Below are positions 1 to 35,072 of a stretch of 41,843 nt of DNA, one piece after another. Position numbers and translations under genes: made by a program. This DNA comes from an uncultured archaeon. Its GTDB lineage: Archaea; Altiarchaeota; Altiarchaeia; IMC4; SCGC-AAA252-I15. The notes beneath the pieces are model-generated. The model was not told where the DNA came from. It made no database searches and saw only the letters and a program-made list of their open reading frames with translations. The DNA lies in NCBI GenBank assembly GCA_902384455.1, contig CABMCB010000069.1, positions 1-41,843 of the forward strand, given 5' to 3'. Position 1 is the first letter of the stretch, and each line of letters opens with the position of its first letter.

Positions 1-197
1 ATAGGTGTTGCTCTAATCAGCACGATTGGATGGCCACACCCTGTCGTTGTCCAGATAAGGCCCAAGGAATCACGACACGGTGGAGTGTCGAAGGTTCAAT
101 CCGATAAATAAATAAAAAGTTATACCCAGTAGGTATAATACTTTGATGCACGATGGATATCAAAATTGATAACCTACATGCAACGAAACACATATGA

Positions 198-362
198 TTA
201 TTCGTTCAGACACTTGACCGCCGCATAGTACGCGGTTCTCTTGTGCCGGAGTGCACTTACGATGTGCTCGGCGTTATTCCATGTCCTGAAGTCATCTATC
301 AGGGCGTCAAGTTCTGCTATCCTTGCGTTCAACTTCACCTTTACTCTGTCTATCTTTCTCAT
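198..362 (-). CDS. Small hypothetical protein (54 aa)
   Basis: Start moved to the ATG at 362, which overlaps the stop of the MT-A70 gene (ATGA coupling). Confidence 0.65.
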   Translation of the reverse strand: MRKIDRVKVKLNARIAELDALIDDFRTWNNAEHIVSALRHKRTAYYAAVKCLNE

Positions 363-1018
363 TTCTTTCCCTCCGTCCTCGTCGGTAAAGGACAATCCTG
401 TCCCTCCACGTCGTTTCCGAGCGCGGTCCATCCGGGTCTGCGGTGCCTCGCGAACAGTTCACAATACGGCCCGTCGAGCAGGCGCTCGATGCGGTCGTAT
501 ATCTGGTCCGGCTTTCTCGAGTGCTCCCGGCGTTGAGCCATGATTATCGAGTGTACATCCTTGAACTTGCGCTTCGGCTTGCCCCTGGTCCCGAGCAGAC
601 ACATCTCGGCATTCTGGCGAGTCCAGTAGCCGCACCCCATCGATGCACCGGGCATGGTCTTGTTCATCTTGACCCATGTGAAGGCCACGGTCTTGAACTC
701 GAACCTCCAAGCCTTCATGACATCGAGACCCTGCTGTAGCATGGTGTTGATGACCCACAAGAACAGGACGCTGTCGTCGGTTGCCAGGTCTGCTACCGGC
801 AGGTCCTTGATGTCCTCCAACTCCATACACGGATAGTGCCTCGTGGCCGACTTCTCCGTGCCCTTGGGACTCCAGTTCTTGTAGTGCCAAGGTGGGTCCG
901 CCAACAAGACCCGAAAGCGCTCTTCCATCGAGTCACTTCCGCTTTCTCGACGGTGCATTTCGCGGCTTCTTACCGTGCCCGCTGTGATGTCTTGCCCCGT
1001 TCTTCGATATCCATTCAC
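359..1018 (-). CDS. MT-A70 family N6-adenine methyltransferase
   Basis: Motifs LADPPW, LFLW, FTWVK, GxGYWTRxNxE, REHSRKP, ELFAR. Start is either GTG 1018 (overlaps upstream stop) or ATG 928. Confidence 0.93.
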   Translation of the reverse strand: MNGYRRTGQDITAGTVRSREMHRRESGSDSMEERFRVLLADPPWHYKNWSPKGTEKSATRHYPCMELEDIKDLPVADLATDDSVLFLWVINTMLQQGLDVMKAWRFEFKTVAFTWVKMNKTMPGASMGCGYWTRQNAEMCLLGTRGKPKRKFKDVHSIIMAQRREHSRKPDQIYDRIERLLDGPYCELFARHRRPGWTALGNDVEGQDCPLPTRTEGKK

Positions 1019-1248
1019 CCTTTTGATTCTTGTCCCATCTCTTGCCCCTCATTTTTATCCCTCCGTTTTTCCATGTAATGTTGAAGTATCTTGACTGCGA
1101 GCGCTTCCGGACCGTCGTCGTAGTGATGTTTTATGACGGTCTTGTCGTCGAGTTGATATTCACACATCTCGTGCTTCTCACCTTTGATACGGACGCATCG
1201 AAACTTTCTAATGCTCGTGAAGTTGACCTGTAGGTCCACGATGAACAT
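1015..1248 (-). CDS. Hypothetical protein
   Basis: ORF fits the minus-strand operon, with a GGGAGGG RBS-like sequence upstream. Confidence 0.65.
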   Translation of the reverse strand: MFIVDLQVNFTSIRKFRCVRIKGEKHEMCEYQLDDKTVIKHHYDDGPEALAVKILQHYMEKRRDKNEGQEMGQESKG

Positions 1249-1303
1249 TACCAGTCCCTCCCGTATTGCTTCGATAACCTCACCTGTATCAGGATGGTGC
1301 CTC

Positions 1304-1768
1304 TCACTGGAACATCCCCTTGCTCTTGTCGCGGATGCCGAAGTCGGTCATGGTCCCGCCCACGGTCCTGACCTCCATCCACCCGGTGTCCTCGAGTATC
1401 TTTCCGTCATCGACGAAGATGTTGCGCGACTTACACCAGTCTTCGCTCTCGGTGTAAATTGTGATTGCAGTGTTTCTCTTCGGCGGGATACTCGGGTCCT
1501 TCGTGGACCTCATCTCGACCCACCCGAGGAACACGACCATGACCGCCGCCAGATGGTCCTTGGACTTTTTAACGACTTCTCGTATCATGTTACTAATTAT
1601 CTCGGTATGTGGCATCATCGCCTGAAATATCACGACCTCGGGCACCCCCTTTTTTGTCAGGAGCGTCACGTGAGCCGGGACCATCTTGGTCAGCGCGTAT
1701 TTCTCTTTGATGAGGTCGACTCCCTTGTCGAGTATCGTTTCGATAGTTTTATTATCCACGGCCATCAC
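1304..1768 (-). CDS. Hypothetical protein (154 aa)
   Basis: Protein-like composition; fits the operon. Confidence 0.75.
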   Translation of the reverse strand: MMAVDNKTIETILDKGVDLIKEKYALTKMVPAHVTLLTKKGVPEVVIFQAMMPHTEIISNMIREVVKKSKDHLAAVMVVFLGWVEMRSTKDPSIPPKRNTAITIYTESEDWCKSRNIFVDDGKILEDTGWMEVRTVGGTMTDFGIRDKSKGMFQ

Positions 1769-1775
1769 CTATACG

Positions 1776-1860
1776 CAGGGCACCCGGAAAGGAGGCAGTC
1801 CGAACCGGGCGCCCTGGCCCAATCGTGGGCGTTCATCCTTGTGCAGGATTTGAACCTGCG
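1776..1860 (-). ncRNA. Candidate structured RNA: tRNA T-arm-like hairpin plus a 12-bp hairpin with an anti-RBS loop
   Basis: Minus strand reads GCAGG-TTCAAAT-CCTGC (~1843-1859). Stem 1776-1787/1805-1816 has one mismatch, which is a G-U pair only on the minus strand. Confidence 0.4.
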
Positions 1861-1898
1861 TCATATGTACTTGCTAACTCTTAATGCTTTCGGTGAGA

Positions 1899-2366
1899 TT
1901 ATTCTGGCACCACTGTCATACCGACGAACCCCGGTGACTGCGGCAATTCCACCATGTAGGTCACGCGGACCGAGAATATTCGTCCCGTGTATTGTTCCGT
2001 CGTGGGGTCCCATTCCGCCAGTTGAAGAATGTCGCCTACCTTGTAGCCTCGGTCGTTCTTGCGAACCTCCCAGGTCTTAAAGCGTTCTTTCACCGCTTTG
2101 AAATACTCGGGCCAGCACTTCAGGTTGTGTATATTCGCGTTTTTAGTTTTCAAAGAATCCAGGTATCCGGGTTGTGTTCCGACGAGCCATCCGATGAGCG
2201 CGTCTTGTCGCTCGACCTCGTCGAGCAGTTCGGTCGCAATCTGACCGAGTTCACCTTTTGATGGACTCTGGCTCCTGAAGTTCTTGCGTAGGTCCATCCT
2301 TCCCCTGCATCTGCGAAGCAAACGACTTATCTCCGCCCTGCGCTCCGATGTCATTTTGTCGTCCAT
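1899..2366 (-). CDS. ASCH/PUA-like (DUF3850-type) domain protein
   Basis: C-terminal HNLKCWPEYFKAV..KTWEVRKNDRGYKVGDILQLAEW signature. Start ATG 2366 or 2354. Confidence 0.85.
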   Translation of the reverse strand: MDDKMTSERRAEISRLLRRCRGRMDLRKNFRSQSPSKGELGQIATELLDEVERQDALIGWLVGTQPGYLDSLKTKNANIHNLKCWPEYFKAVKERFKTWEVRKNDRGYKVGDILQLAEWDPTTEQYTGRIFSVRVTYMVELPQSPGFVGMTVVPE

Positions 2367-2911
2367 GTGCTTCCCTCGATTTCGCTTATCAGTTTCTTGA
2401 CCTCTTCGGACTCCAAGATTCTCACGGCCCCGCCCGATGGTCCCCATCTCGTGTCGAGTGTGAAGATGCCCCGCAGGACCGGATATCCCTGCTGATAGTC
2501 TTCCATTATCCCGAAGTGCTTTCTGTCGATGGCCGTCTTCATGACGAACTGGCGGTCGAAGGCCACTCCGAAGTATTCGGTCCCGACTGGGTTCCAGGTC
2601 GGGTCTATGACGTTGCCCTGCTCATCTACGAGCCATGCGTGTTGAAACGGTATCGGGAGCATGGCGTCTGTCGATATCGCGAACCCCTCAACATAGGACC
2701 ACTCCGGGTGCTTCATGAACACCTTGAAAGCGTTCTGGAAGCACTTGCCCAGGGGCAATCTACTGACGCTGAAGGGCCGTTCTTTGGGCACGAAGGACTT
2801 GCCGTTCTGTAGCACGAAGTCTTCGAGACCGTAGTACACGAAGTCTGTCGGCTTCGACTTGGTCTTGTACAACTTGACCACGGCTTTGAGATATTCTTTG
2901 ACAATAGTCAT
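2351..2911 (-). CDS. Papain/transglutaminase-like fold protein (Cys-His-Asp)
   Basis: GKCFQNA ... YVEGFA ... HAWLVD ... VIDPT. ATG 2911 overlaps the upstream stop. Confidence 0.7.
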   Translation of the reverse strand: MTIVKEYLKAVVKLYKTKSKPTDFVYYGLEDFVLQNGKSFVPKERPFSVSRLPLGKCFQNAFKVFMKHPEWSYVEGFAISTDAMLPIPFQHAWLVDEQGNVIDPTWNPVGTEYFGVAFDRQFVMKTAIDRKHFGIMEDYQQGYPVLRGIFTLDTRWGPSGGAVRILESEEVKKLISEIEGSTWTTK

Positions 2912-3576
2912 ATTTTTTCCTCCTTGAGGTGATATGGTGGTGGACCCTTGTATGAGCACTCTTTCACCTCGACGCCGAGCGCTTTCATCCGGGTCTTGAG
3001 TTCTTCGATTTCTTTGTAGAGACCGTTCAGTAAATCCGAGAATGCCTGGTTATAATGGTTGTTATATACTTTGGTCCATGATTCTACGAACCTGTTTCCG
3101 TAGTCTATGACGGTCTGGTCTGAATGAACGTATCGATTGTCCTCTTCTCGATATACTCGTGATATGGTCACGTCCGAATCCCATAAGTATTCTGGAAAGT
3201 TGTTCCAGTCGTGTGTATCTATAAAGGTATGAAACGATGTTATATATCGTTCCATCGCTATCATGTGCTTCGGAGATGGCGCGGCGTTCTTGAAATCAAA
3301 AAATCTCGACATTCCTGCAAAACTGTGAAACCAACCCGTGATGTCTTTCGGAACATTTTTATAATCGAGACGATTATTTGTGGGTCCCGTCGCCGGTCCG
3401 GCGTACATGTCGTATAGTGTTTCTACGACCATCTCGCCGAGTTTGTAGCAAAGTTTCCAGTATTTCCAGCACGAACCTTCTCGGTTGATACGGAACGGGT
3501 GCGTCTTTATTTGTTCATGAAGGTCTCCGAGTTCCTTCCAACGCTCTTCAGGAACATAATAAATTCTCGGTTTCAA
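2908..3576 (-). CDS. Hypothetical protein (222 aa, AT-richer than neighbours)
   Basis: Long ORF, TTG start with a GAGGAGGCA leader. Confidence 0.75.
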   Translation of the reverse strand: MKPRIYYVPEERWKELGDLHEQIKTHPFRINREGSCWKYWKLCYKLGEMVVETLYDMYAGPATGPTNNRLDYKNVPKDITGWFHSFAGMSRFFDFKNAAPSPKHMIAMERYITSFHTFIDTHDWNNFPEYLWDSDVTISRVYREEDNRYVHSDQTVIDYGNRFVESWTKVYNNHYNQAFSDLLNGLYKEIEELKTRMKALGVEVKECSYKGPPPYHLKEEKI

Positions 3577-3591
3577 GTTTATGCCTCCTCG

Positions 3592-3735
3592 TCATAGTTT
3601 ATATTTCATCGGTGGGTTTCCATAGAAGGTGTCGAAGTATACGCGCACTCTATAGCGGCCCTCGTATATTCGCAACCTATCTATGAGGTGGGCACCCTTC
3701 TCGGGAGTCCATCCTACACACCAGTCGTACTGCAT
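3592..3735 (-). CDS. Small hypothetical protein (47 aa, MQYDWCVGW...), not in the ORF track
   Basis: Translated by hand; fills the intergenic gap; GAGGTGA RBS. Confidence 0.55.
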   Translation of the reverse strand: MQYDWCVGWTPEKGAHLIDRLRIYEGRYRVRVYFDTFYGNPPMKYKL

Positions 3736-3738
3736 CGC

Positions 3739-4416
3739 TCACCTCGACGGCTCGATTTCTGCGGGCTTGCCCATCAGCGTGACCCTCATGCGGTCACCGT
3801 AAGTCGCCGGAGTGATTATGACCTCGCTCCTCTTGGCCATGACCACCTTCTCTCGTCCAGGCTCGGAGACCTTCGTATATTTCTCCGACTTATCGGTCTT
3901 GGCATAGATGCCACCGACCTTGGCGACGATGTCGATGATGGTCCATCCGTCGGGCCTGTAGTTGTTGCGGTGATGGTCGCCGAGTTTCAGGCCGCGGTTG
4001 TGATATCCGTGATGTCCAGTCAGGGTGCTCGTAAAGACCTCGACGATTATCCATCCGTCCCTCTGAAGTCCAAGGACCTTGATGTGGTCGAGCATTCTCC
4101 GTTCGTCGCTGTCGAAACACTCTATTATGTTTGCCCTCCGACCAGCGGCTCTCACCACTTCGTCGTGCGGCTTCTCGAGTTCATCGCGCTTTGCATCAAA
4201 GTCTTCGAGGGCGTCCTCGATTTCCTTTTGCATCTTTTCCAGCGACTTCCTCGCCTCATTCCTTTCCATTCGAAGCACGTCGAGTGCTCCCTCGGCGCCG
4301 AGCACGTCCATCTTTCTTTGCTCATCCTCGCGCCGCGTGGCGTCCCGGCTCGTCCGGATGCTGTTCAACTTGGATACCGCTTTTGTTACTTCTTTTTCTA
4401 ACTCCCCGTGTTCCAT
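3739..4416 (-). CDS. Hypothetical protein with N-terminal coiled coil
   Basis: Start moved to MEHGELEK (AAGGGGGCAGG leader); E/K/R-rich heptads. Confidence 0.75.
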   Translation of the reverse strand: MEHGELEKEVTKAVSKLNSIRTSRDATRREDEQRKMDVLGAEGALDVLRMERNEARKSLEKMQKEIEDALEDFDAKRDELEKPHDEVVRAAGRRANIIECFDSDERRMLDHIKVLGLQRDGWIIVEVFTSTLTGHHGYHNRGLKLGDHHRNNYRPDGWTIIDIVAKVGGIYAKTDKSEKYTKVSEPGREKVVMAKRSEVIITPATYGDRMRVTLMGKPAEIEPSR

Positions 4417-4429
4417 ATGTCCTGCCCCC

Positions 4430-4765
4430 TTAATTCTTGAAGTCCTTATCCAATTCCCTCGCGATGTCTGACGCGAACTTGAGCATGACGCTGTAGTGCT
4501 CAGCGGTCTTCGGGTCCTGGTCACCCATCGCGGACCAGTTAACGGTCGCAGGCTCCCACGGAACCGCCTTCTTCCCCGCGCCAAACCCGAGACCTTCCTT
4601 GCATTTCTTCACTGTGACCTGGACTTGGTGGTCTCGAACCTTACCCTTGTTGTCCACGTAGTGAAGAACTGACGATACTGTGAAATACACATCGTGGTCC
4701 GATATGTTCCTGGCGGTCATCGTTATCTTCCCATCTGGTCCATCAAACTCGTGTTGTGTCTGCAT
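4430..4765 (-). CDS. Hypothetical protein (111 aa)
   Basis: AAGGAGGCAG leader; fits the operon. Confidence 0.75.
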   Translation of the reverse strand: MQTQHEFDGPDGKITMTARNISDHDVYFTVSSVLHYVDNKGKVRDHQVQVTVKKCKEGLGFGAGKKAVPWEPATVNWSAMGDQDPKTAEHYSVMLKFASDIARELDKDFKN

Positions 4766-4839
4766 GTTTCTGCCTCCTTACCGGCCCCACAGGGGCCATA
4801 TAGGCCCCTCACGGACTTCAACCGTGAGGGGTGACCGGT

Positions 4840-5673
4840 CTATTCGAGAGGATTGTAGTAGTTGGACATTTCAGCGAGTCTCGCGTTCTCCTCGCGTATG
4901 AAATCCTCAATGCTCTTTTTGACCTTCGGGTCCTCAGTCTTCGTGGCCTCTTCCTTCTTTTTCTCGATGTCCGCGGAGACCTCGGCCTTATGGTCTTCAA
5001 ACTTCTTCTTGACCATGCCAGAGTCCGCCTTCGAGACTACGAGCGCCCACATCTCGGAACCGATGCTCCGGAGGAAGTCCGCATATCGGTCGACTTCGCC
5101 TGCGAAGTCCTTGGGAACGAAGTACACCCCGCCTGTCGGCCTGAGCAGTAACGAGTGCCATTTCTTCAACTTGCGCTGAAGAGCGGTCCTGACATCCACG
5201 TCGTTGTGAACCTTCATCAGGGTCTCATATCGGGTTTTCACATCACCGACAATAGAATCCCACTCCTCGTCGTTTGTGTCGTATTTCTTGCCCGAGACCG
5301 TGCCATCGACGTCGTATGTGAGGACGCCCACATCATCGAAAGCGAAGGGCTTCTCGTCGCCCTTTTTGTATCGCTCCCTGACGACGTGCCTAACCGCCGG
5401 TCGGCCTTCCTCATACCTGACCATATATTTCGTGACCGTGTTGGTCGCGTCGTCGACCCGAATGCGCTGGTCGATAATCCGCGTGGCGACCTTGAAGCAG
5501 TCTGGCGCCCTCGGAGCGTTCAAGAACTCGCTCTCTGGGAGGCCCGCCTCTGTCCACTTCTTCAGAAGAGTCTCTCTGTCCAGTTCAAAAGAGCGGACCG
5601 AGAACCAGGATATCCTTCCGATGCCCTCGGCCTTCCCGTCAACCTTTACTTCACCGATTGGTAGTTCGACCAT
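4840..5673 (-). CDS. Hypothetical mobile-element protein, DUF6744-like
   Basis: GxISWFSV...L..AGLP...P...DCFKVA and LRPTGGVYFVP patterns recalled for this family; AAGGAGGCAGG leader. Confidence 0.6.
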   Translation of the reverse strand: MVELPIGEVKVDGKAEGIGRISWFSVRSFELDRETLLKKWTEAGLPESEFLNAPRAPDCFKVATRIIDQRIRVDDATNTVTKYMVRYEEGRPAVRHVVRERYKKGDEKPFAFDDVGVLTYDVDGTVSGKKYDTNDEEWDSIVGDVKTRYETLMKVHNDVDVRTALQRKLKKWHSLLLRPTGGVYFVPKDFAGEVDRYADFLRSIGSEMWALVVSKADSGMVKKKFEDHKAEVSADIEKKKEEATKTEDPKVKKSIEDFIREENARLAEMSNYYNPLE

Positions 5674-5705
5674 CTTTCCTGCCTCCTTATATTATCAATC
5701 TATCA

Positions 5706-5882
5706 TTATATCTTATTCTTGCGATTCTCGGAGACACCGACCCTCGTTACTGGTTTGTCCCAGTATGGGGAGTTGCACGACGGACAGTGAACAGGTATCG
5801 TGCCCGGTTTTCTCGGCCACCACTTGTGACCACACCGCAGACATTGGAGCATCGTCGCAATCACCCGCTCACCCATCGACAT
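5706..5882 (-). CDS. Zn-ribbon protein (58 aa), not in the ORF track
   Basis: MSMGERVIATMLQCLRCGHKWWPRKPGTIPVHCPSCNSPYWDK: two CxxC pairs; GGAGGCA leader; first gene after the leftward promoter. Confidence 0.85.
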   Translation of the reverse strand: MSMGERVIATMLQCLRCGHKWWPRKPGTIPVHCPSCNSPYWDKPVTRVGVSENRKNKI

Positions 5883-5914
5883 TCGTTGCCTCCATCATCC
5901 TATATGTAGTTGCC

Positions 5915-6049
5915 CCTATATATAGGTTGTGTCGGGTATATATACCTCGAATGCACAGAAATGTGCATCGAGACCGAATTACCAGAAACCGCTCAATGCA
6001 CAAAAATATACATCGGAGGTTTATATACTGGGAGAAACCTATATATAGG
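5915..6049. promoter_or_regulatory. Symmetric divergent archaeal promoter pair with palindromic operators
   Basis: 54-bp imperfect inverted repeat (5915-5968 / 5996-6049, 39/54 matches). Each arm has a TATA-like box (TTTATATA at 6020-6027) and the palindrome CCTATATATAGG. Confidence 0.8.
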
Positions 6050-6099
6050 TCGAGTGATATATACATAGTTGCCAGCAATGGCACAAGGAGGCAGGTAAC

Positions 6100-6729
6100 A
6101 TGGTCACGCAGAAAGAAGTATTAGGAAAGATAGAGAAAGAGATAAAAGAGACTGTAGAGAAGGTCGCACAGGCACAGACCGCCTTCGACCGCGACTTCGG
6201 CGGCATCCAGGAACAGGTCGACCGGGTCGATGCTGAAATCGTCCGCCAGCGCAATTTAGCCAAGCAGATTCGAATCGAGACCGCCAACGCCATCTCGAAC
6301 AATGCCAGCGCCTACGAGCGTGGAGAAACCCACCACGTGTCTCGTGAAGTCTTGGTCACTTTCAACCAAGCAGTTGCCCTAAACGGATGGAAACTCCAGG
6401 GGCACGAGGTCTACAACATAATCCACGGAAGATACCGAGATGTCTGCAACCAAAGGACCGCCGGGATAACCAAAATCGTCGACGCACTCTACGAGCAGAG
6501 GAGCGCCTTGACCACCAAGGAATACGACCAAGCCGTCGGCAACCTAAATTCGCTCAAGAGCGAACTCCGATATATCCAACAGAGATACGACCGCCTGAGC
6601 GACCTGAGCGAATTCCGCCAGTGGGCAAAAAACCACAAGGCCCGCGAAGAAACCGATGCAAGACACGCGCTCTTCGCCAAGGGTCGCGAGAAAGCGAGCG
6701 AGTGGGCCAAGAACAATATCCTGGTGTAG
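6100..6729 (+). CDS. Alpha-helical/coiled-coil hypothetical protein (209 aa)
   Basis: AAGGAGGCAGG leader; first gene after the rightward promoter. Confidence 0.85.
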   Translation: MVTQKEVLGKIEKEIKETVEKVAQAQTAFDRDFGGIQEQVDRVDAEIVRQRNLAKQIRIETANAISNNASAYERGETHHVSREVLVTFNQAVALNGWKLQGHEVYNIIHGRYRDVCNQRTAGITKIVDALYEQRSALTTKEYDQAVGNLNSLKSELRYIQQRYDRLSDLSEFRQWAKNHKAREETDARHALFAKGREKASEWAKNNILV

Positions 6730-6735
6730 ACCAGG

Positions 6736-6785
6736 TGGTCCGTGTCAGGTCTCTCTAACGGGGGTCCGACTCCCCCCACGGACTA
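6736..6785 (+). ncRNA. tRNA-like minihelix (acceptor-like stem plus T-arm, no D or anticodon arm)
   Basis: TGGTCCGTG (6736-6744) pairs with CACGGACTA (6777-6785), directly abutting GGGGG-TCCGACT-CCCCC (6760-6776). Confidence 0.45.
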
Positions 6786-6800
6786 TAAGGAGGTCTGAAA

Positions 6801-6926
6801 ATGCCAAACCAAGAAAGGTGTGATAGGTGTCCGCATAAGGGCACTTGTCAGAAACATTGTCGGACCTGCAATGTCGACACCTGTATGCACGACAACTGTC
6901 CAGTCGACTGCGGGACCGCCAGGTAG
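6801..6926 (+). CDS. Cys-rich microprotein (41 aa, 8 Cys, 3 His), not in the ORF track
   Basis: MPNQERCDRCPHKGTCQKHCRTCNVDTCMHDNCPVDCGTAR; AAGGAGG RBS. Confidence 0.7.
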   Translation: MPNQERCDRCPHKGTCQKHCRTCNVDTCMHDNCPVDCGTAR

Positions 6927-7123
6927 CGCCTCGTGATAACACGAGTGTCGCCTACGAGCCGAAGGCATAGACCTACTGAAAGTCCGACCACAGACAGGAA
7001 ATCCGCGCACCCGACGCACTACAATATCGGTATGGCCAGAAAGTGTGTCCGATGAGGGACGGCAACCCAATTCCCCGTCCCACGGACCTGTGATGTGTGG
7101 TCGAACATAAAGGAGGCAGGAAA

Positions 7124-7534
7124 ATGACAACAAAAGCAGAATGGAAAGACATCGAAAGCATCTTGGGATGCGAAGTGCCGACCATCGTGAAAGAAAGGAG
7201 CGTAGGCTACACGGGCTTTGCTCAGAAGTTCTTCAGTGGCATACCGGTCACTCGAAAGGACTTCTGGAAAGCCGTTGATGGCGGAATGATAAACATCCCA
7301 GACGATGCTCCCTGGGGCAAGGTCAAAGCGAGCGCCTACGAGTCCTTCACGAAGAAATGGCACTTCACCGAGGACCACTACGGCTACCGCCACGACCAAC
7401 CGAAGCGCATCATCGTTCACAAAGACGGAACCACCGAGCACTCGATAAACTGCTTGGGATGTTGCTCCACGAACACCGAGACCATCACCAAGAACTGCGA
7501 GGAGCCGGAGTGTCATTTCTGCAAGAGAGCGTAG
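7124..7534 (+). CDS. Hypothetical protein with Cys-rich C-terminus
   Basis: AAAGGAGGCAGG leader before ATG 7124; CLGCC...C..C..C tail. Confidence 0.8.
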   Translation: MTTKAEWKDIESILGCEVPTIVKERSVGYTGFAQKFFSGIPVTRKDFWKAVDGGMINIPDDAPWGKVKASAYESFTKKWHFTEDHYGYRHDQPKRIIVHKDGTTEHSINCLGCCSTNTETITKNCEEPECHFCKRA

Positions 7535-7557
7535 ACCCACCGATAGGAGACGATAAC

Positions 7558-7695
7558 ATGCACCCAAAGAACAAGCACTGTTTCGGGAAGAAATACTCCA
7601 GACTGGTCAGGTGCGGCGTCAAGTGCCCCGACTGGTGGGAATGCGGACTGACATCTCGAAAGACCGCAACACGCCTCGGCAAGGTGGTGGTCTGA
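7558..7695 (+). CDS. Small Cys-rich basic protein (45 aa)
   Basis: MHPKNKHCFGKKY...CGVKCPDWWECG; AGGAG RBS. Confidence 0.65.
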   Translation: MHPKNKHCFGKKYSRLVRCGVKCPDWWECGLTSRKTATRLGKVVV

Positions 7696-7880
7696 TGATT
7701 TGTCCAGCGACCAAGAAGAACATCTCACCCGAGTATGAGCCTCGATATTGCTCTCATACACCTACGTTCTGCGCCTGTTGCGACATGAAAGACATCGTGA
7801 CCGGCGACCCCTTATCGCCACCAGACCCTCTATCCCCGCGGGACCCGTTAAATCCACCAGACCCGCTCAACTCACGCTAA
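7695..7880 (+). CDS. Small Cys-rich protein with DPL(S/N)Px repeats (61 aa)
   Basis: TGATG coupling to the previous gene; C-terminal DPLSPP-DPLSPR-DPLNPP-DPLNSR. Confidence 0.65.
   Translation: MICPATKKNISPEYEPRYCSHTPTFCACCDMKDIVTGDPLSPPDPLSPRDPLNPPDPLNSR
7806..7877 (+). repeat. 4 x 18-bp degenerate coding tandem repeat
   Basis: GACCCN-led 18-mers; much of the variation is synonymous. Confidence 0.75.
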
Positions 7881-7894
7881 ACAATGCCTCCTCG

Positions 7895-7921
7895 GGGTGC
7901 CCGAAAACGGGCACCCTTTTT
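7895..7921 (+). terminator. Hairpin plus T-tract terminator of the plus-strand cassette
   Basis: GGGTGCCCG-AAAA-CGGGCACCC-TTTTT between convergent genes. Confidence 0.8.
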
Positions 7922-8714
7922 ATTTGTCCGTTCCGGAGACTTCGGCGACCGGGAGTCCGACTACGACCTTGATACTCTCTTTCCATTTTATCTTATTCAC
8001 ATTCTTGAGAGCGTTGTAGAGCACTATGATTTTGTCGTTGGTCTGCGAGCGCTCAACGAGATAATAATACTCCCAGTCCTTCGGCGTGTAGTTCCTCGTG
8101 TCGATGCGCTCCCACATACGATTCATCTTCCCGAGCCAGATAGCGTCGGTGATGTAAGGAGCAATCTTGACAATGACCGAGTAAGGGTCCTCGTCCAGAA
8201 GAGGCTCCATCGAGACCGAAGTCTGATATCCGTGAGTGAATGCGTGTTCCAGACACTTCAGACGCTCATCGAAATCTGGGGCACCCGGCTCCCAGAACTT
8301 GAGCACATCATTCCGAGCAGACCCGATAGTGAACCTGAACAAAATCTGGTCCTTGTAGTTCACAAGTTCTTTGCACAGCGTCTCGATACAGGAGATGTGC
8401 GGCTTCGAGACTATCAGGACCCTGTTGCCAGCAGATAAAATCTTCTTGAGGTAAGGCACGACCTCGAGTATATTCTTCGGCGTTATATCGTGAGACGTAG
8501 GGAACATGATAACTTGGTCCTTCCTCGTCGGATACGACTTCTTGCCCAACTTGTTGTGATTGAACACCGGACAGGTCCACTCAGTCCTGTTCTTCACTTG
8601 CCCATACTTGAGAGCGTTGGCTCGTGCGTAGCAATAGGCACAGTCGTGTTCGCATCCCGTCTGGATGTTCTCTGAAATGTCACTCCATTCCTTCGTCCCC
8701 GATACCATCTTCAT
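7920..8714 (-). CDS. Radical SAM protein (SPL/DUF5131-like)
   Basis: GCEHDCAYCYA CxxxCxxC motif; SMEPLL; ends ..KWKESIK. Confidence 0.88.
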   Translation of the reverse strand: MKMVSGTKEWSDISENIQTGCEHDCAYCYARANALKYGQVKNRTEWTCPVFNHNKLGKKSYPTRKDQVIMFPTSHDITPKNILEVVPYLKKILSAGNRVLIVSKPHISCIETLCKELVNYKDQILFRFTIGSARNDVLKFWEPGAPDFDERLKCLEHAFTHGYQTSVSMEPLLDEDPYSVIVKIAPYITDAIWLGKMNRMWERIDTRNYTPKDWEYYYLVERSQTNDKIIVLYNALKNVNKIKWKESIKVVVGLPVAEVSGTDK

Positions 8715-8717
8715 CCC

Positions 8718-8963
8718 TCATTCGAATTTTTTTGGCGCCGGTTCTATGTCCCAATCATCGGCGTCAGTGATTGTTCTCTTCAGATTAGCACGTGCCGTTT
8801 CCACCGTCTCGCTGAATAGTAGGACAGGGTGGTTCTCGTACCACTGGGTCTTTTCTTCGGGTGTTGTCCCTGGGGGCCATGCGAGGAACGCATTCGACGC
8901 CGTCCACGATTTCTCCGAAGACTCGCACTGCTTTTTTTGACAATTCGAACGCTTTCGCGACAT
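8718..8963 (-). CDS. Possible small protein overlapping the 3' end of the upstream ORF
   Basis: Fills the gap to the radical SAM gene but overlaps 8785-8963 in another frame. Confidence 0.4.
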   Translation of the reverse strand: MSRKRSNCQKKQCESSEKSWTASNAFLAWPPGTTPEEKTQWYENHPVLLFSETVETARANLKRTITDADDWDIEPAPKKFE

Positions 8964-9297
8964 TATTCAATTCCCCCATCGAATAGACTACCGGTATCAA
9001 TAATTCTTTCGCCCGTGTTATCTCGGCCAGTGTTCCCTTACTGTTCTCGAAACCGGGAAGGACCAATACTATATCAGCGACTTCGAGCCATGCCATCGAG
9101 TAGGCGTAGAAGTCTGGCACGGTCAACTTCTCGCCCTCCTGAAGCATGAAGACGAAATGATGGTCAAACCACGGCACGAAGGGCGCGTGTCCGGCCAGCA
9201 GGACCTCGACCCCGGCCCTCATACCCTTCCGGATGTTGTCGAGCACTCCGAGCACATTGTCCGCGCTGTAGGCGCCAGCGATGTAGACCCGCATCAT
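8785..9297 (-). CDS. Nucleoside 2-deoxyribosyltransferase-like protein (DUF4406/DUF1937 type)
   Basis: RVYIAGAYS ... WLEVAD.VLVLPG.ENSKGT.AE...A....IPV; TGATG coupling at 9297. Confidence 0.8.
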   Translation of the reverse strand: MMRVYIAGAYSADNVLGVLDNIRKGMRAGVEVLLAGHAPFVPWFDHHFVFMLQEGEKLTVPDFYAYSMAWLEVADIVLVLPGFENSKGTLAEITRAKELLIPVVYSMGELNNVAKAFELSKKAVRVFGEIVDGVECVPRMAPRDNTRRKDPVVREPPCPTIQRDGGNGTC

Positions 9298-9983
9298 CAG
9301 AACCAATCCTCCGGGACATGCCGAATGACCGGTCGCTCTGACTTCTGGTAGGTGTCGAACGCCTGCCAGAAGAGGTCCGCGGCCCGACCCTCACCCCAGG
9401 CATCGAGCACTTCGACCTTGAGTCCTATCACCGGGTTCATGGCGATGATGACGCATATGGGTTCGTCCCCCCGGAACTTCGGGTCGGACATGAGTGCCCG
9501 TTTGTACGCCACGACCTGAGCGCGGTGATTGTCGAAAATGCCCTTAGAGGTCTTGAAATCTACGACCGCACGTTTACCATCGAAGAGGCCGAGCCAGTCC
9601 ATAGACCCCGCATATAGCAGTTTTCTATGGTAGCATTCTATTTCCAGGGCCTCCGGAGCCATTTTCCTTGCGGCCATGAGCGAATCGAAGAGTTTCATGC
9701 AGTCTTCGACCTTCCGGACGATTTCGGGCGTCAGGCCGCCTTCTAATTCAAGATTCGGTGCCGGGAGACCGTTTGTCTGAGCGAAGTGACAGGCTATCCG
9801 GTAATGAACGAGCGTTCCTGCGGTCGCCGAGTCGTTCAAGACCTTCTCCCAGTTCTCGGTAGTTTGCTTCCATCGAACCAGGCGCGGCTCTTCCGGGATA
9901 TAGTGGTGCAAGAGGGTCGTCACCGAGATGCAATCGTGACCGTCCATCCTGTAGTAACGCTTGCCGTCCTTCATGAATCTCAT
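9297..9983 (-). CDS. PD-(D/E)XK exonuclease (Cas4/lambda-exo-like)
   Basis: SVTTLL, GTLVH, E..YAGSMD, VVDFKTS, QxxAY motifs; start 9983 overlaps the helicase stop. Confidence 0.88.
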   Translation of the reverse strand: MRFMKDGKRYYRMDGHDCISVTTLLHHYIPEEPRLVRWKQTTENWEKVLNDSATAGTLVHYRIACHFAQTNGLPAPNLELEGGLTPEIVRKVEDCMKLFDSLMAARKMAPEALEIECYHRKLLYAGSMDWLGLFDGKRAVVDFKTSKGIFDNHRAQVVAYKRALMSDPKFRGDEPICVIIAMNPVIGLKVEVLDAWGEGRAADLFWQAFDTYQKSERPVIRHVPEDWF

Positions 9984-11533
9984 TCGGCTTCCTCCTTTAG
10001 CGCTCCATATACGGTCTTCAGATGACCGCTCTTGTCTTTGAGGTTTACCCAGTTTGTAGCGACTCCTACAACTTCCCAGTGGTCCGCCCCACATATGGAA
10101 CACACCAGCGGTTCGTTCTCGGCCTTGACGACCGATAACTTGGCGCCTTCTTTTTTAACCACCGTGATATTGGCGTTGTGAGGTGTCTGGGTAACCGTGA
10201 ACGCCTTCTCGGTCTTGTAGACCCACAACCGTTCCCCGGAGTGCTTCATGAGGTGCTTCGCGCCATCCATGAAGTCGATAATCTCGACCGCCTTCTTGTC
10301 TGCGGATATTCGTAGGACTCGGCCTATCAACTGTCGCACAAAGACCTCTGATAGACCGCCACAGGCCATGACCAGAACATCCATTCCTGGTACGTCCACA
10401 CCTTCGCCCAGGAGGTCGCTGATTAGACACCCGCCTTCGCTCTGAAATACGCTTATGGCCTTCGTCCTGACCTTCAGGTTCGTCGTGCCAGATATCCAGA
10501 CCGACTTCGGGATGCTCTTATGTAAGAGTTCGCCATGTCGCAGAATTTTAACGTGGACGTACACGCTTTTCTTTTCGGCCAGCGCGATGTTCACCGCGTC
10601 GATTATTTTCTTATTTCTCACTTCGTTGTCCACTATGTAATCTCGATAGATGTCGGCGTATTTTGCCTTCCTGGCATAGGTCCTGGGCGGAACCTGTAAC
10701 ATCCGAACCGTCGGACGGGCAAGATATCCCTGGTCAATCATGTCCGTGAGTGATATTTTTATAATGTGTTCTCCGAGCGCTCCTGTGATTTTCATGTCAT
10801 GACCGTCGGCCCTGTAAGGAGTCGCCGACAACCCGAAGAGATACTTGCTTCTCGAGTTCATCGCTATGTCGTAGACCAAGTCTGCGGCCACATGATGACA
10901 TTCGTCGATGACTGTGCACCCGAAGTTCTCGAACAACTCCTTCGGCAACTTCGAGACCGTCTGTACCATAGCGACCGTGAGCGGCTTGATGTCCACAACC
11001 CCGTTGCCGACCGTTCCTACTTCGTCCGGCTTGATTCCATAGATGTCACATAGCGACGCTTTCCATTGCTCCATGAGGTCGAGTTTGTGAACGAATATCA
11101 CCGCCGATGTTCCTATCTTCCGTATTATGTCAGCAGATACCAGGGTCTTACCCGTCCCCGTTGGCAGACAGATTATACCCCGCTCCTGTTTGAGCGCTCG
11201 GGTCGAGGTGTCCTTCTGATACGGTCGAAGCGATTTTGACATGCCGGTCTTGTTGTGTATAGCACTGCGTTCGCACACGAACACCGACCGGTCCTCGACC
11301 TTGTATGGTTGCTCGATGACCTCGAGTAAGGTCAAGACCTCGGTCAACATGCCACGAGGGAATGAATGTGAGTAGCGACGATAAAGATGAACAAAACCGT
11401 CCCATTTACCTTCTTTATAGTCTTCACTGTGCTCGAACCCCTTGGGTCGATACATCATGACGGGTTCTATCTGCGATTCGACGATGGCGACCTCTCGGTT
11501 GTCTCCCTTGAGGAAGACCTCGTTGCCCCTCAT
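9980..11533 (-). CDS. SF2 DExH helicase (XPB/UvsW-like) with a C-terminal CxxC element
   Basis: LRPYQ, PTGTGKT, DECHH, GLSATP, EGVDVP, QLIGRVLR. Confidence 0.93.
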   Translation of the reverse strand: MRGNEVFLKGDNREVAIVESQIEPVMMYRPKGFEHSEDYKEGKWDGFVHLYRRYSHSFPRGMLTEVLTLLEVIEQPYKVEDRSVFVCERSAIHNKTGMSKSLRPYQKDTSTRALKQERGIICLPTGTGKTLVSADIIRKIGTSAVIFVHKLDLMEQWKASLCDIYGIKPDEVGTVGNGVVDIKPLTVAMVQTVSKLPKELFENFGCTVIDECHHVAADLVYDIAMNSRSKYLFGLSATPYRADGHDMKITGALGEHIIKISLTDMIDQGYLARPTVRMLQVPPRTYARKAKYADIYRDYIVDNEVRNKKIIDAVNIALAEKKSVYVHVKILRHGELLHKSIPKSVWISGTTNLKVRTKAISVFQSEGGCLISDLLGEGVDVPGMDVLVMACGGLSEVFVRQLIGRVLRISADKKAVEIIDFMDGAKHLMKHSGERLWVYKTEKAFTVTQTPHNANITVVKKEGAKLSVVKAENEPLVCSICGADHWEVVGVATNWVNLKDKSGHLKTVYGALKEEAE

Positions 11534-11544
11534 CTCGAGTATTA

Positions 11545-11703
11545 TCAGGTCGGAAACCCTCCTATCGAAAATTCCGCAAGGACCAAAGCGTCACCCACCG
11601 TGAAACAGTTTAAGAAGTTGAACGCGAATATGACAATATCATTAGCATAAGCATCCTCTTGAAGTGTGATTATTGCATATCGGGCCTCATCCGCATCGTT
11701 CAT
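11545..11703 (-). CDS. Small hypothetical protein (52 aa)
   Basis: ATG 11703 overlaps the upstream stop; fills the gap. Confidence 0.5.
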   Translation of the reverse strand: MNDADEARYAIITLQEDAYANDIVIFAFNFLNCFTVGDALVLAEFSIGGFPT

Positions 11704-12269
11704 TGGAATCTCACCTTCGGTCCCTTGGCCGCCATGCACTTCGTGATGAACTCCGCGACCAGTTTCTTCGGGAGCAGGTTTTGAAGCGCGTTTCGTTGGG
11801 CCTTGCTTAGGGCCTTGCTCAAGGCGAAGGGGTCTTCGATTTCGCCGTCCCGCGTCTTCATGCGCTTCGGGACTTCTGCGGCCCCGTATAGCGCGATGTT
11901 GCGGGTTAGGTCCCTTGCCCGACACACGACCCTGAAGGCGTCTGCGGTCTCAACGATATGAGGGTCTTCGATGGCATAGTTTCCCGCCTCGACAATCAGT
12001 GTCTTCGTCCCCACCCACGACAGACCCGTGATGCGCTTACCACCGCTCGGAAACGAGTAAACCATCGTATCGAGCACGTCGTCGGGCAAGCCGTTCAACT
12101 CGGCCAGTATTTGCTCCTCGTCGGCTCGGTCCATCATTTGATACGGTGTCTGCTCGGGTATCGTTCTGATGACCATTTCGTTTTTGGACGACTCCGACTT
12201 CTTTGTGACCCGCTCATCCTCTTCGGCGAGCAAGCGCTCTACGTCATCATCGCCGTCCTTGTCCCCCAA
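11700..12269 (-). CDS. Putative ssDNA-annealing protein (Rad52/Red-beta-like)
   Basis: GLSWVG, beta-rich core, FALSKALSKAQRNAL helix; lies near the exonuclease and helicase. Confidence 0.5.
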   Translation of the reverse strand: MGDKDGDDDVERLLAEEDERVTKKSESSKNEMVIRTIPEQTPYQMMDRADEEQILAELNGLPDDVLDTMVYSFPSGGKRITGLSWVGTKTLIVEAGNYAIEDPHIVETADAFRVVCRARDLTRNIALYGAAEVPKRMKTRDGEIEDPFALSKALSKAQRNALQNLLPKKLVAEFITKCMAAKGPKVRFQ

Positions 12270-12288
12270 ATTATACCCCCCTTTTTAT

Positions 12289-13605
12289 CTACTGCGGTCC
12301 CTGTGGGGATTGCGCTGGTGGTGCTGTTGGAGCGGGAGTTGCCGCCTTCTGCAACTTCTTGATGTTGGCGTCCACTGAGGCGTCGCTCGGGCCTGTCCCG
12401 TCGCCCCATGTCCAGATGTCCTTGTTGAGTTCGCGAGCGTTCTGGACCGTGACCTTGTCGATGCCTCCGACCGCCCCGGCGGCCTTCTCGACACCCTGCT
12501 TGATGAGTCTGGCCCTCTCTTGAACGCTCAACTTGACCACCGCTGGTGCACCCGCTGGTGCGACCGGCGCGGGAGTCGGTGCTGGTGTTGGCGGCGGTGT
12601 CGCTGGTTGTGCGACCGTCGTTGACGCTGGTGCGACCGTTGCCGGTGCAAGGGTCACGGGCTTTTGCGCTGGCGCGGGTCCGCCTTTGGCGGCCACCTGA
12701 ACGGCCTTCTCGAGTGTTGGTTGATATGCCGGTTCTGGAAGTTGCCAGATTGCTGTAGCGATGATGGTCACGAAGTTGCGACCATCCCTGGACCTCGACT
12801 GCTCCCACTTGCTCATGTAGCCGACCACGAGCACCGCGGCACCCGCGATGTTCATGGCGACCTGTTCGAGGCTCCCGAGGTTGACCCCAGTGATGAGGTC
12901 CGGGAACTCCAGTATAGGCTCCGATATCTTGCGTGGTGTGAGCCTGACCGTGACCATGTTCGCCTTTCCCGCCAGAAGCGAGAACTGAAAGACCGGTTGC
13001 TTGTTGACGACGACCGGGAAGTCGCCTGCGACCTTGCCGTCCTCCCAGAAACTCTCAGGGCGGAAGTTCTCACCGATGATGCCTTTTATGATGACTGGCG
13101 TCTTCAGGTCTTCGACCACGAGGTCGTCGATTGTCTTCGCCTTGGCGAGAACGGCTTCGAGTGTGATTGCCTCCTTGCCGACCACGACCTCACGGACGTT
13201 GCGATTGACGTATTTGGTCTGGCCGTCCTTGCTCGTGCCCTCGGACTCCTCGTAGCGTATCTCCGACCTATAGCCGTGCTTGCCGTTATATGAGCCTTTG
13301 ACGTCGACCTCGGTCAACTTCCCATCCGCCGACATGACGGTGACGAACTGCTTCCAGGACGAGTTTATGTCGTCCCCGGAGTATTCACGCCCGCCAAGCA
13401 CATAGCCGATGATGGTCTTCATCTCGGTCGGCCTTCCGACGCCGTTCCTGGCGTTGCGAATGCGCCTCATAGAGGTCATTTCGCTCCACGACCTACCCTT
13501 AGACGGGTCTGGCGCGTTGTCTCCGTATTCTTTTTCGGAGACCCCTTTCAAACCGTTCTTCTCGCACATATCCTTGAACTGTTGGTAATCCATCTTATCC
13601 ACCAT
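12289..13605 (-). CDS. Putative OB-fold ssDNA-binding protein with Pro/Ala-rich linker
   Basis: Beta-rich segments (VLVVGYMSKW...FVTIIATAIW) and replication context; fold inferred only. Confidence 0.45.
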   Translation of the reverse strand: MVDKMDYQQFKDMCEKNGLKGVSEKEYGDNAPDPSKGRSWSEMTSMRRIRNARNGVGRPTEMKTIIGYVLGGREYSGDDINSSWKQFVTVMSADGKLTEVDVKGSYNGKHGYRSEIRYEESEGTSKDGQTKYVNRNVREVVVGKEAITLEAVLAKAKTIDDLVVEDLKTPVIIKGIIGENFRPESFWEDGKVAGDFPVVVNKQPVFQFSLLAGKANMVTVRLTPRKISEPILEFPDLITGVNLGSLEQVAMNIAGAAVLVVGYMSKWEQSRSRDGRNFVTIIATAIWQLPEPAYQPTLEKAVQVAAKGGPAPAQKPVTLAPATVAPASTTVAQPATPPPTPAPTPAPVAPAGAPAVVKLSVQERARLIKQGVEKAAGAVGGIDKVTVQNARELNKDIWTWGDGTGPSDASVDANIKKLQKAATPAPTAPPAQSPQGPQ

Positions 13606-13608
13606 CCA

Positions 13609-14316
13609 TCATTCGTGAGGCACGTTCATCTTTATCAGTTTGGTGCACCTTATACTGAAGGCGCTCTTGCTGTTGGAATTTTCTATTTTTATTCCTTCGC
13701 CGTCGGCGGGGGTCCTCACGCGAAGCATTATCAGGTCACCGGGCCTCGCTCTTATCTCACGCTCCGCGTTGTATGTGAGCGGATGTCCCCATGTCCTGTA
13801 AGTCCCGGATTCGTTGATTTCCTCAAGCGTTCCTGTCCATATCGTGCCCCTCAACTTGGATTCTTTTTTGTTCCACACTTCGAGGGTCGCTTCTACACCA
13901 TGTCCGTTCGTGGCTTTTCCTTCAAGGTCTGTGAATAATTTTCCTATCATGAAGTGCTCGGCGTTGAACGGCACAAACTGATATTCCAGTCCCTTTAGAA
14001 CACGACATTTAAACACGGTCGTCGTTGTTCCTGGAACACTATCCATGACGGTAACGGCCTTGTTGTCGGATTTTGATGTTATGACGCTCATGAACTTTCT
14101 ATACGTCACCTTTGTTATCCGGTCTACGTAATGATTGCCCACTTCACGACCCGATATCGTGTGATATCGTCCCATGTGCTCAGCGGTCGTGTTGACATAC
14201 TCGCGTATCATGTCAAATATCCTGAACCTTATGGTCCAGACCATGACGGCTATCAGTATCAGCACGACGAAGTTCATCAACAACATCAGCGTTGTTATAG
14301 CGTCCATGTTTTTCAT
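13609..14316 (-). CDS. N-terminally membrane-anchored paralog of the putative major capsid protein
   Basis: Hydrophobic helix at aa ~6-29; C-terminal domain aligns with 36315-36935 (32/58 identical in the core). Confidence 0.85.
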   Translation of the reverse strand: MKNMDAITTLMLLMNFVVLILIAVMVWTIRFRIFDMIREYVNTTAEHMGRYHTISGREVGNHYVDRITKVTYRKFMSVITSKSDNKAVTVMDSVPGTTTTVFKCRVLKGLEYQFVPFNAEHFMIGKLFTDLEGKATNGHGVEATLEVWNKKESKLRGTIWTGTLEEINESGTYRTWGHPLTYNAEREIRARPGDLIMLRVRTPADGEGIKIENSNSKSAFSIRCTKLIKMNVPHE

Positions 14317-14340
14317 CCCCGTGATTCGTGAGTTGTCAAT

Positions 14341-14670
14341 CTATTGTGTTCTCTTAGGGAACTTTTGTGCGGCAAGGGCCGTAGCCTGGTAGGCTCTCTG
14401 TTCCTCATCTTCGTCGAGTATGGCCTCTGGAAGTTCTCCGGCCTCGTCGTTGTCGTTATCGACGAGTGTTGCGAAGACACAGGTCTGTCGCATCTCGGTT
14501 ATCCGACAAACGACCGTGTTCCCGGCCTTCAATTTGTCAGATTCCTTCACGGTCTTCAGGAAGACGACGCAGGAGTAATAGCGTCCAAACCAATCTCCCT
14601 TCGCGCCCTTGCTTTCGAGCCTCAGTTCAATCTTGTCCCCGACTTCCATGTTGAAATGTTTACCCGTCAA
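14341..14670 (-). CDS. Stand-alone TRAM-domain RNA-binding protein with acidic tail
   Basis: VGDKIELRLESKGAKGD..G....VVF....KAGNTVVCRITE......FATLV. Confidence 0.8.
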   Translation of the reverse strand: MTGKHFNMEVGDKIELRLESKGAKGDWFGRYYSCVVFLKTVKESDKLKAGNTVVCRITEMRQTCVFATLVDNDNDEAGELPEAILDEDEEQRAYQATALAAQKFPKRTQ

Positions 14671-14840
14671 TCAGACCCCTCCAATAGAACCTTCATTTTG
14701 ACAAGAACGGTCTGACCGGGATTCAACTTCATGTGTCTCGCCATCCTTCGCGGGATGGTGATTTCGAGCGACTTGTTCACCTTGGAGCCGTTCGTGCGAA
14801 CGACCGCGGTGAACTCCCCAACCGACCCCTCTTGTCCCAT
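14667..14840 (-). CDS. AbrB/SpoVT-like DNA-binding protein (57 aa), not in the ORF track
   Basis: Translated by hand: ...KSLEITIPRRMARHMKLNPGQTVLVKM; stop overlaps the TRAM start. Confidence 0.82.
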   Translation of the reverse strand: MGQEGSVGEFTAVVRTNGSKVNKSLEITIPRRMARHMKLNPGQTVLVKMKVLLEGSD

Positions 14841-14867
14841 TGTCTACCCCTATGCACATTTAATCAT

Positions 14868-16885: not shown

Positions 16886-17019
16886 TAAAATCCCTCGAAG
16901 TCACAACTGTTGCATTTGTAGGTGTACGTGCCGTCTGGTTGTCGCGCCAGGATAGAGACGTCCCTGCTGAAGCACTCTGGACATTCTACAACGTCTTTCT
17001 CATCATCGCTCATGTTCAT
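16885..17019 (-). CDS. Small Zn-ribbon protein (44 aa), not in the ORF track
   Basis: MNMSDDEKDVVECPECFS...YKCNSCDFEGF; translationally coupled at both ends. Confidence 0.75.
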   Translation of the reverse strand: MNMSDDEKDVVECPECFSRDVSILARQPDGTYTYKCNSCDFEGF

Positions 17020-19247: not shown

Positions 19248-19272
19248 AAACGTATCCCCAGTGATGACGTCA

Positions 19273-19533: not shown

Positions 19534-19539
19534 GTCCCC

Positions 19540-25307: not shown

Positions 25308-25308
25308 G

Positions 25309-28095: not shown

Positions 28096-28106
28096 GGGGT
28101 CTGACC

Positions 28107-32627: not shown

Positions 32628-32649
32628 GACCCCTGCACAATATACTATC

Positions 32650-35020: not shown

Positions 35021-35072
35021 TTTTGAATCTCGCTCTTCCCCTCGGTTACCCATATGTTTTCCCCCTTATGGT

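Follow-up and report, generated by a model that had tools for sequence, protein, structure and literature searches.

The window, which is the whole of the DNA analysed here, is a 41.8-kb contig (C69, 41,843 nt) from a 2.41-Mb MAG of 103 contigs. It is joined to two further contigs, C62 and C66, by 127-nt overlaps, giving a 57.5-kb scaffold without terminal overlap. The genes of the window are of the type carried by mobile elements and viruses, and include an MT-A70 methyltransferase, a DUF3850/ASCH protein, two helicases, a primase-polymerase/D5 protein, a radical-SAM protein, an exonuclease and a deoxyribosyltransferase, with a HerA-type ATPase encoded on C62. The nearest relative of this phage-like element sits in a bin titled Zixibacteria, and the host is therefore unsettled, its domain included. 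In the right half (23562-41753) all large plus-strand ORFs are without Pfam or PHROG hits, except for a weak AAA_5 hit and a transglutaminase-like domain; if they are structural genes, they are very divergent. A 716-aa ORF at 30477-32627 on the plus strand has a long, highly acidic Asp/Glu-rich repeat region (~31100-31650) and no family hit. A DNA sequencing run with 8% of the words gave eight short contigs identical to the window within 1-20000, none of them over 1335-3335.

Elsewhere in the MAG, ARAGORN finds 131 tRNA genes, with arrays bearing encoded CCA ends on contigs C4 (~25), C38 (~27) and C59 (~37). C59 (99.9 kb) has identical 127-nt ends and is probably circular, and C4 joins C68; the contigs with tRNA arrays look like large phages, or extrachromosomal elements of another kind, that ended up in one bin with the cellular genome. 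The 16S rRNA match breaks off at C6:1103, where the sequence departs from the conserved 3' region, and the conserved 16S 3' end is located ~880 nt beyond, at C6:206-221, suggesting an insertion or intron in the 16S gene.

A structured spacer inside a leftward operon

A spacer of 130 nt separates the DUF3850/ASCH gene (stop at 1899) from the downstream gene P0001, inside a long leftward operon (Table 1). It contains a GC-rich element of ~95 nt (1776-1859), which is not a free-standing gene, and it folds into three adjacent hairpins, H1, H2 and H3, the last being the third stem-loop of the element. A reading of the sequence alone (hereafter the sequence-only reading) had proposed a minus-strand hairpin at 1776-1816 with a 12-bp stem, one G-U pair and a loop antisense to the leaders of early genes, and the stem and loop were confirmed on that strand when the folding was computed. 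H3 consists of the arm CAGGGCGCCCGG, the loop UUCGGACUGCCUCCUUU and the arm CCGGGUGCCCUG. Folded as 53 nt it reaches -31.8 kcal/mol, with z of about -3.8 (-3.7 to -3.9), a value equalled by none of 200 shuffles. ViennaRNA adds an inner 3-bp helix, GGA:UCC, with high predicted probability, so that the apical loop left is CUGCC. Throughout the 2.41 Mb of the MAG there are 38 strand-instances of strong hairpins (a stem of at least 10, at least seven G-C pairs and at most one G-U) with loops of at least 10 nt, and CCTCC is found in the loop only in H3. The idea of a MAG family of hairpins with anti-SD loops was accordingly rejected, the hairpin scan having found no further members. A reading of H3 as a CRISPR repeat was also rejected: a crude scan for repeats turned up no arrays in the MAG, and H3 is a single-copy sequence in that genome.

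Table 1. Positions of the hairpins, genes, control region and boxes in the window
Feature	Position	Strand	Remarks
P0001, downstream gene	1304..1768	minus	orphan by sequence; likely start GTG 1759 behind SD AGGUGAU
Open frame of 31 codons through H1-H3	1769..1864	minus	without SD, without coding signal; TAG abuts GTG/ATG of next gene
H3 hairpin	1776..1816	minus	12-bp stem (one G-U); 17-nt loop, the complement of the RBS box
H2 small hairpin, GCCCA CGAU UGGGC	1817..1830	minus	hairpin of other sequence at the same place in L013
H1 hairpin, GCAGG UUCAAAU CCUGC	1843..1859	minus	T-arm-like; kept in L013 and L014 with changed stems
DUF3850/ASCH-domain protein, upstream gene	1899..2447	minus	ASCH gene also precedes the element in L013
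Variant box GAGGAGGCAT	3581..3590	minus	before TTG 3576; with the preceding C, 11-nt complement of 7884-7894
Near-box AAGGGGGCAG	4422..4431	minus	before ATG 4416
RBS box AAGGAGGCAG	4770..4779	minus	gene starting at 4765
RBS box AAGGAGGCAG	5679..5688	minus	DUF6744 gene starting at 5673 (4840-5673)
Divergent control region	5900..6080		palindromic TATATA-type boxes between two box-bearing operons; layout also in L013 and L014
RBS box AAGGAGGCAG	6085..6094	plus	gene starting at 6100
RBS box AAAGGAGGCAG	7109..7119	plus	gene starting at 7124; 11-nt loop match
Second anti-RBS motif AUGCCUCCUCG	7884..7921	plus	directly before a terminator hairpin and T5 run

Neither end of a separate small transcript is apparent at the spacer. 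No sigma-70-like site occurs on the minus strand at 1816-1900, and inspection of the spacer by eye for TATA-type boxes found none. The terminator scan gave no terminator-like site at or after the hairpin on the minus strand, nor did it pick up H3 itself as an intrinsic terminator, and no T-run follows H3 on either strand. Between 5.9 kb and 0.1 kb the only minus-strand runs of five or more T are at 3298-3303, inside a gene, and at 114-118, the end of the operon. Given that no promoter-like box or T-run is nearby, the simplest view is that the hairpin belongs to a long leftward transcript, together with the leaders of the genes at 5673 and 4765.

The protein encoded by P0001 retrieved only itself in a search among 5.8 billion proteins. 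In its fold (Atlas model) it is similar to hypothetical proteins from tailed phages, the lambda Ea47 domain among them, with TM of 0.70-0.77. Searches of viral contigs with the P0001, P0002, primase and DUF6744 proteins found nothing, and the other matches of P0002 have only the DUF3850 domain in common with it.

Part of the spacer resembles tRNA. The 19 nt at 1841-1859 (minus strand) exactly match the T-arm of a tRNA-Met gene from C68, and a tRNA-Ser from C38 matches over 18 nt. The presence of a tRNA or tRNA-like gene was rejected, with no genes found by ARAGORN in the window and H1 scoring 15.2 bits against a tRNA gathering score of 29. An attP site or tRNA remnant was rejected also, as no integrase is encoded on the contigs of the scaffold, the T-arm identity ends after 19-21 nt and H1 is not T-loop-like in L013, a related contig described below. 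The operon has a second structured intercistronic spacer at 4766-4839 (minus strand; z -3.4, equalled by none of 200 shuffles). It contains a 10-bp hairpin at 4805-4831 and another in which the first AGG of the gene 4765 RBS box pairs with CCU.

Ribosome-binding boxes of the early genes and their complements

The sequence-only reading held that the loop is complementary over 10-11 nt to the leaders of the genes starting at 4765, 5673, 6100 and 7124, and exact counting of matches bears this out. The 10-mer AAGGAGGCAG has five copies in the window, one in the H3 loop (1789-1798, on the plus strand) and four in RBSs, where it stands 4-5 nt before the ATGs at 4765 and 5673 (minus) and 6100 and 7124 (plus); for gene 7124 the loop match extends to 11 nt. 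When one mismatch is allowed there are 10 matches, compared with 1.96 +/- 1.30 expected, and none of 100 shuffles reaches 10. The near-matches that had been proposed at 3576, 4416 and 5882 are likewise RBSs, namely GAGGAGGCAT (TTG 3576), AAGGGGGCAG (ATG 4416) and GGAGGCAA (ATG 5882). The complementarity described in the sequence-only reading is real and non-random. The boxes of genes 6100 and 7124 head a rightward cassette, which departs from the same divergent control region as the leftward operon.

The divergent control region of the window (5900-6080) contains several palindromic TATATA-type boxes (CCTATATATAGG, GGTATATATACC), and its layout is kept in L013 (9430-9620) and in a second related contig, L014 (9920-9985). 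A similar box located ~25 nt before the ATG at 23563 suggests a leaderless or short-leader start there.

A 21-mer of the loop is predicted to bind the four leaders at -19.5 to -21.1 kcal/mol, compared with -12.0 to -12.4 kcal/mol for the 16S tail of the binned MAG, so that the loop would bind 7-9 kcal/mol tighter. Gains computed with RNAcofold were disregarded, as loop-target pairing lies beyond its model. The H3 loop and the 3' tail of the 16S gene of the binned MAG have CCUCCUUUC in common, while the loop bases that give specificity (CUG) are not 16S-like.

A plus-strand box at the hairpin might instead be the RBS of a real plus-strand gene, an outcome that the sequence-only reading had named as fatal to its proposal. 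No start codon occurs in the 25 nt after AAAGGAGGCAG at the hairpin, and none follows the opposite-strand box in either the window or L013. The long plus-strand ORF at 1184-2080 has no Pfam hit and a codon score of -0.17, indicating no coding signal, against +0.52 for the minus-strand gene at 1304-1768. With no start codon following and codon statistics that favour the minus strand, the box at the hairpin does not appear to be an RBS in the window.

A second candidate site had been reported towards the end of the plus-strand cassette, and TGCCTCCT does lie at 7885-7892, directly before a terminator-like hairpin (7894-7917) and its T5 run. The stretch 7884-7894 forms an 11-nt complement of the leader of gene 3576. 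This site and the 3' arm of H3 have GGGUGCCC in common, and the MAG has just two occurrences of the combined motif. The 7885 site has no clear counterpart in L013. That contig has a terminator-like hairpin at 7873-7914 (minus strand), which ends its divergent cassette and has a 16-nt loop with CCACCUUUC, followed by a T5 run; CCACCUUUC is not a complement of the RBS box of L013.

Relatives of the element and the covariation of loop and box

Relatives were retrieved through an alignment of DUF6744 homologues (45-55% identity) in metagenome and genome collections, giving four near ones: L013 (the same as the L037 contig, 48.8 kb), L014 (26 kb), L012 and L015. L012 was left out as too short, and L015 because its gene lies at the contig end, with the leader and upstream DNA missing. 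The element is carried by three genomes only, those of the window, L013 and L014. L013 has homologues of P0001, of the gene at 2351-2911, of the radical-SAM protein, of the exonuclease, of a helicase and of one more gene. An alignment of the window and L013 elements over H1-H3 has a mean column identity of 78% and 59 invariant columns out of 107, whereas the flanking P0001 homologues are 29% identical and the ASCH genes of the two give no tblastn hit at 1e-3. L014 carries a more diverged, still alignable copy.

The arms of H3 differ in sequence between the genomes and yet pair (12 of 12 positions in the window, 13 of 15 in L013 and 9 of 9 in L014). The window and L013 both begin the loop with UUCGGA and both have the inner GGA:UCC helix, and the variable bases that give specificity are located in the apical loop left by this conserved helix. 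Against shuffles H3 is not significant in the GC-rich relatives, with z of -0.95 in L013 (36 of 200) and -0.78 in L014 (44 of 200). RNAalifold on a MAFFT pairwise alignment does not recover H3, the 3' arm being misaligned, and predicts 18 pairs with one compensatory change. The motif is on the same strand as its neighbouring genes in all three genomes, at distances from the DUF6744 leader of ~3.9 kb downstream (window), 2 kb downstream (L013) and 1 kb upstream (L014).

Beyond these genomes the element was not encountered. No close relatives at the DNA level were found in phages or in 60 GTDB relatives, and the exact hairpin pattern is absent from the collections of metagenome contigs and viral contigs. 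DUF6744 itself gave nothing in phages (tblastn) or in 60 other genomes of the phylum of the MAG; among 285 genomes of the Zixibacteria phylum, only one (G061) has a DUF6744 relative. Neither of two distant DUF6744 relatives (L147 and L148, 27-30% identity) has an SD-covering complement within 10 kb. A degenerate pattern of the element matched 90 loci in viral contigs, and the 80 that were fetched had no flanking stem but for L072, where a 9-pair run flanks the match and was judged to be chance. A further match to the degenerate pattern, L020, lies in coding-looking DNA without a hairpin and was discarded.

Each of the three genomes has its own version of loop and box. In the window the box AAGGAGGCAG serves four RBSs, AGGAGGCAG occurs five times (the four RBSs and the loop) and the element reads CUGCCUCCUU. 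In L013 the box AAAAGGAGGCGA heads three genes beside that contig's own TATATA control region, the DUF6744 gene among them; AGGAGGCGA occurs four times, in these three RBSs and in the H3 loop, and the element reads UUCGCCUCCU. In L014 the DUF6744 leader is GUGAGGCGGAUAAG, the element is AUCCGCCUC and GAGGCGGAT occurs twice, once in each. Beside the CCUCC/SD core the extensions of loop and box therefore form the pairs CUG/CAG in the window, UUCG/CGAA in L013 and AUCCG/CGGAU in L014, and each element mirrors the leader extension of its own DUF6744 gene (CAG, CGAA and CGGAU), the covariation in related genomes that the sequence-only reading had proposed to look for. Chance 9-mer matches are common genome-wide (~15 in the window for a 45-nt query), and the significance of the matches hence rests on their fixed register beside the SD/anti-SD core; the chance of that register is roughly 4^-3, 4^-4 and 4^-5 for the window, L013 and L014, as our own estimate and not a formal test.

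The covariation supports a functional link between loop and RBS box, which would most simply be RNA-RNA pairing that masks the RBSs of early genes. It thereby upholds one half of the original proposal of a viral anti-RBS sRNA. The other half, that of a separate or processed sRNA, found no support: inspection by eye showed no promoter-like box, no T-run terminator lies next to the hairpin, and the element is intercistronic in a long operon.

Candidate mechanism, alternatives and known systems

The interpretation that we put forward, at roughly even chances, is that gene-strand RNA of the element masks the extended RBS boxes of early genes by base-pairing with them, using the apical loop of H3. 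Transcription of the element would take place in the distal part of the long operon that runs leftward in an uncultured phage-like element. The H3 loop carries the complement of a private extended RBS box, made up of the SD core and 3-5 genome-specific bases; the genes that come first on either side of the divergent early control region use this box, DUF6744 above all. Once the distal operon was transcribed, the loop could pair with the boxes and block binding of the 30S subunit, and the duplex of loop and box may also become the target of a double-strand RNase. The outcome would be a delayed brake on the translation of early genes. Pairing might take place within one long transcript or in trans after cleavage.

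The position of the element admits of another reading, which we consider unlikely, in which it is a structured intercistronic or coding tail that serves translational coupling. The stems would then derive from Gly-rich followed by Pro-rich codons, with CCUCC standing for Pro-Pro, any masking of an SD would be local only, and the match to distant RBSs would be functionless. In both L013 and L014 the element does lie inside an open frame that continues from the upstream ORF, and these two share the peptide GSDS..PPPP(P)AP with synonymous, third-position differences only (GGT TCG GAT TCG and GGA TCT GAT TCT), which suggests selection on the peptide; a run of Gly-rich codons followed by Pro-rich ones would also tend to give an inverted repeat. 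The frame through the element ends at or beside the downstream start in all three genomes, with TAG immediately before GTGATG in the window, a like stop-start junction (TAG-C-GTGATG) in L014 and, in L013, a TGA placed 8 nt beyond the next gene's ATG. The L014 motif can pair with the adjacent RBS GGGAGGCG, and in longer context it prefers this pairing with the RBS of the next gene. A helix in the window, UCACC (1892-1896) with GGUGA (1765-1769), can mask the next start with a probability of 0.05-0.78 according to context, and the spacer at 4766-4839 provides a second structured example in the same operon. What coupling leaves unexplained is why the bases beside CCUCC track the DUF6744 leader of each genome. 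Moreover, the frame through the element in L013 has a codon score of -0.35, compared with 0.3-0.7 for real genes, and the homologous stretch of the window is distributed among three frames, with stops, and lacks a coding signal, yet it keeps the best stem of all, a perfect 12 bp.

The remaining alternatives fare worse. That the box is an operator at the DNA level, bound in either orientation by an early-gene DNA-binding regulator for which the hairpin copy is merely another site, appears improbable: several early genes have their boxes just downstream of TATA-like control boxes, and co-evolution with one protein would likewise yield one shared extension per genome, but the H3 copy is far from any promoter-like region, the box always comes with a full SD at SD spacing, and arms that differ between genomes and stay complementary indicate a single-strand structure. 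It is very improbable that the opposite strand is the active one, with a small antisense transcript displaying the RBS box in its loop as a decoy for the 30S subunit or for a box-binding repressor. In L013, where two A-C mismatches interrupt H3 on the gene strand, this hairpin gains 9 kcal/mol in stability on the opposite strand (-39.4 compared with -30.4 kcal/mol), and a TATA-like TTTTATTAT lies ~20 nt upstream of H3 on the plus strand of the window. Against this, the G-U pair in H3 of the window and the three G-U pairs in H1 and H2 of L013 favour the gene strand, on which the whole element is also slightly more stable in both genomes; L013 does not keep the candidate plus-strand TATA at the corresponding distance, and no terminator follows on that strand. 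Hardly credible, finally, is an inverted remnant of an RBS module, arisen by chance or left as a relic, that has no present function. Such a remnant would suit the orphan status of P0001 by sequence search and a region showing signs of frame decay relative to L013, but not an element conserved across genomes whose proteins share 29-53% identity, with independent matching changes in three of them.

Masking of early-gene RBSs by the H3 loop has its closest analogue in the C4 antisense RNA of phages P1 and P7. C4 is described as having three stem-loops and being cut from a larger transcript, with loops that pair with target mRNA, one of which partly occludes an RBS, and a difference of a few nucleotides in RNA and target sets the specificity of P1 versus P7 (PMC5320573). 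Compared with that description, the element would be C4-like in its working and not a member: it too is predicted to have three hairpins in an operon transcript, and it has an RBS-complementary loop and covariation of loop and target between relatives, but only the H3 loop of the three hairpins has a recognised target, its targets would be several genes located to either side of a divergent control region, and in the relatives it overlaps an open frame. In line with this, no Rfam family has a hit at gathering score in the window, and the C4 family (RF01695) gives no hit at E<=10 in window 1650-1950, L013 11850-12300 or L014 8800-9100.

In the icaR mRNA of Staphylococcus aureus, a downstream C-rich anti-SD motif is reported to pair with the SD, block initiation and make a substrate for RNase III (PMC3868564). 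The element shares the C-rich anti-SD motif and the principle of SD masking with this account. Unlike the icaR motif, it lies outside the 3' UTR of the target gene itself (2-4 kb downstream in a polycistronic operon, with other genes between, or 1 kb upstream in L014), matches several RBSs and is displayed in a hairpin loop. An archaeal parallel comes from Methanosarcina mazei, where sRNA154 is reported to mask the glnA2 RBS with an anti-RBS loop, and sRNA41 to mask RBSs within polycistronic mRNAs (PMC5867862). A loop with anti-RBS sequence and the masking of RBSs are common to these and the element. As described there, sRNA154 and sRNA41 are independent intergenic genes for cellular sRNAs, whereas the element is phage-like, is without a visible promoter-like box or T-run and has a host of unsettled domain. 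A literature search aimed at the element found no description of it.

Judged from the comparison of sequences, the element would be the founder of a putative new family within a known class of regulators, with comparative support that is unusually good for a singleton locus. A more ambitious and rather doubtful extension is that of a master anti-RBS riboregulator in an operon, in which a 3-5-nt address on the side of the SD would define the early genes and a single loop, transcribed later, would silence the set. It is no less tentative that address and loop would, on such a scheme, co-evolve in each phage lineage.

What is known of how phages shut off the translation of their early genes comes mostly from protein repressors and a few antisense RNAs in model phages. 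If the master riboregulator were real and the host were the binned archaeon, this would be a virus-encoded translational riboregulator in archaea. The three natural pairs of loop and box are ready-made specificity swaps. Should the masking model hold, extended, genome-specific RBS boxes shared among genes would be a possible signature of riboregulators in metagenomic phages.
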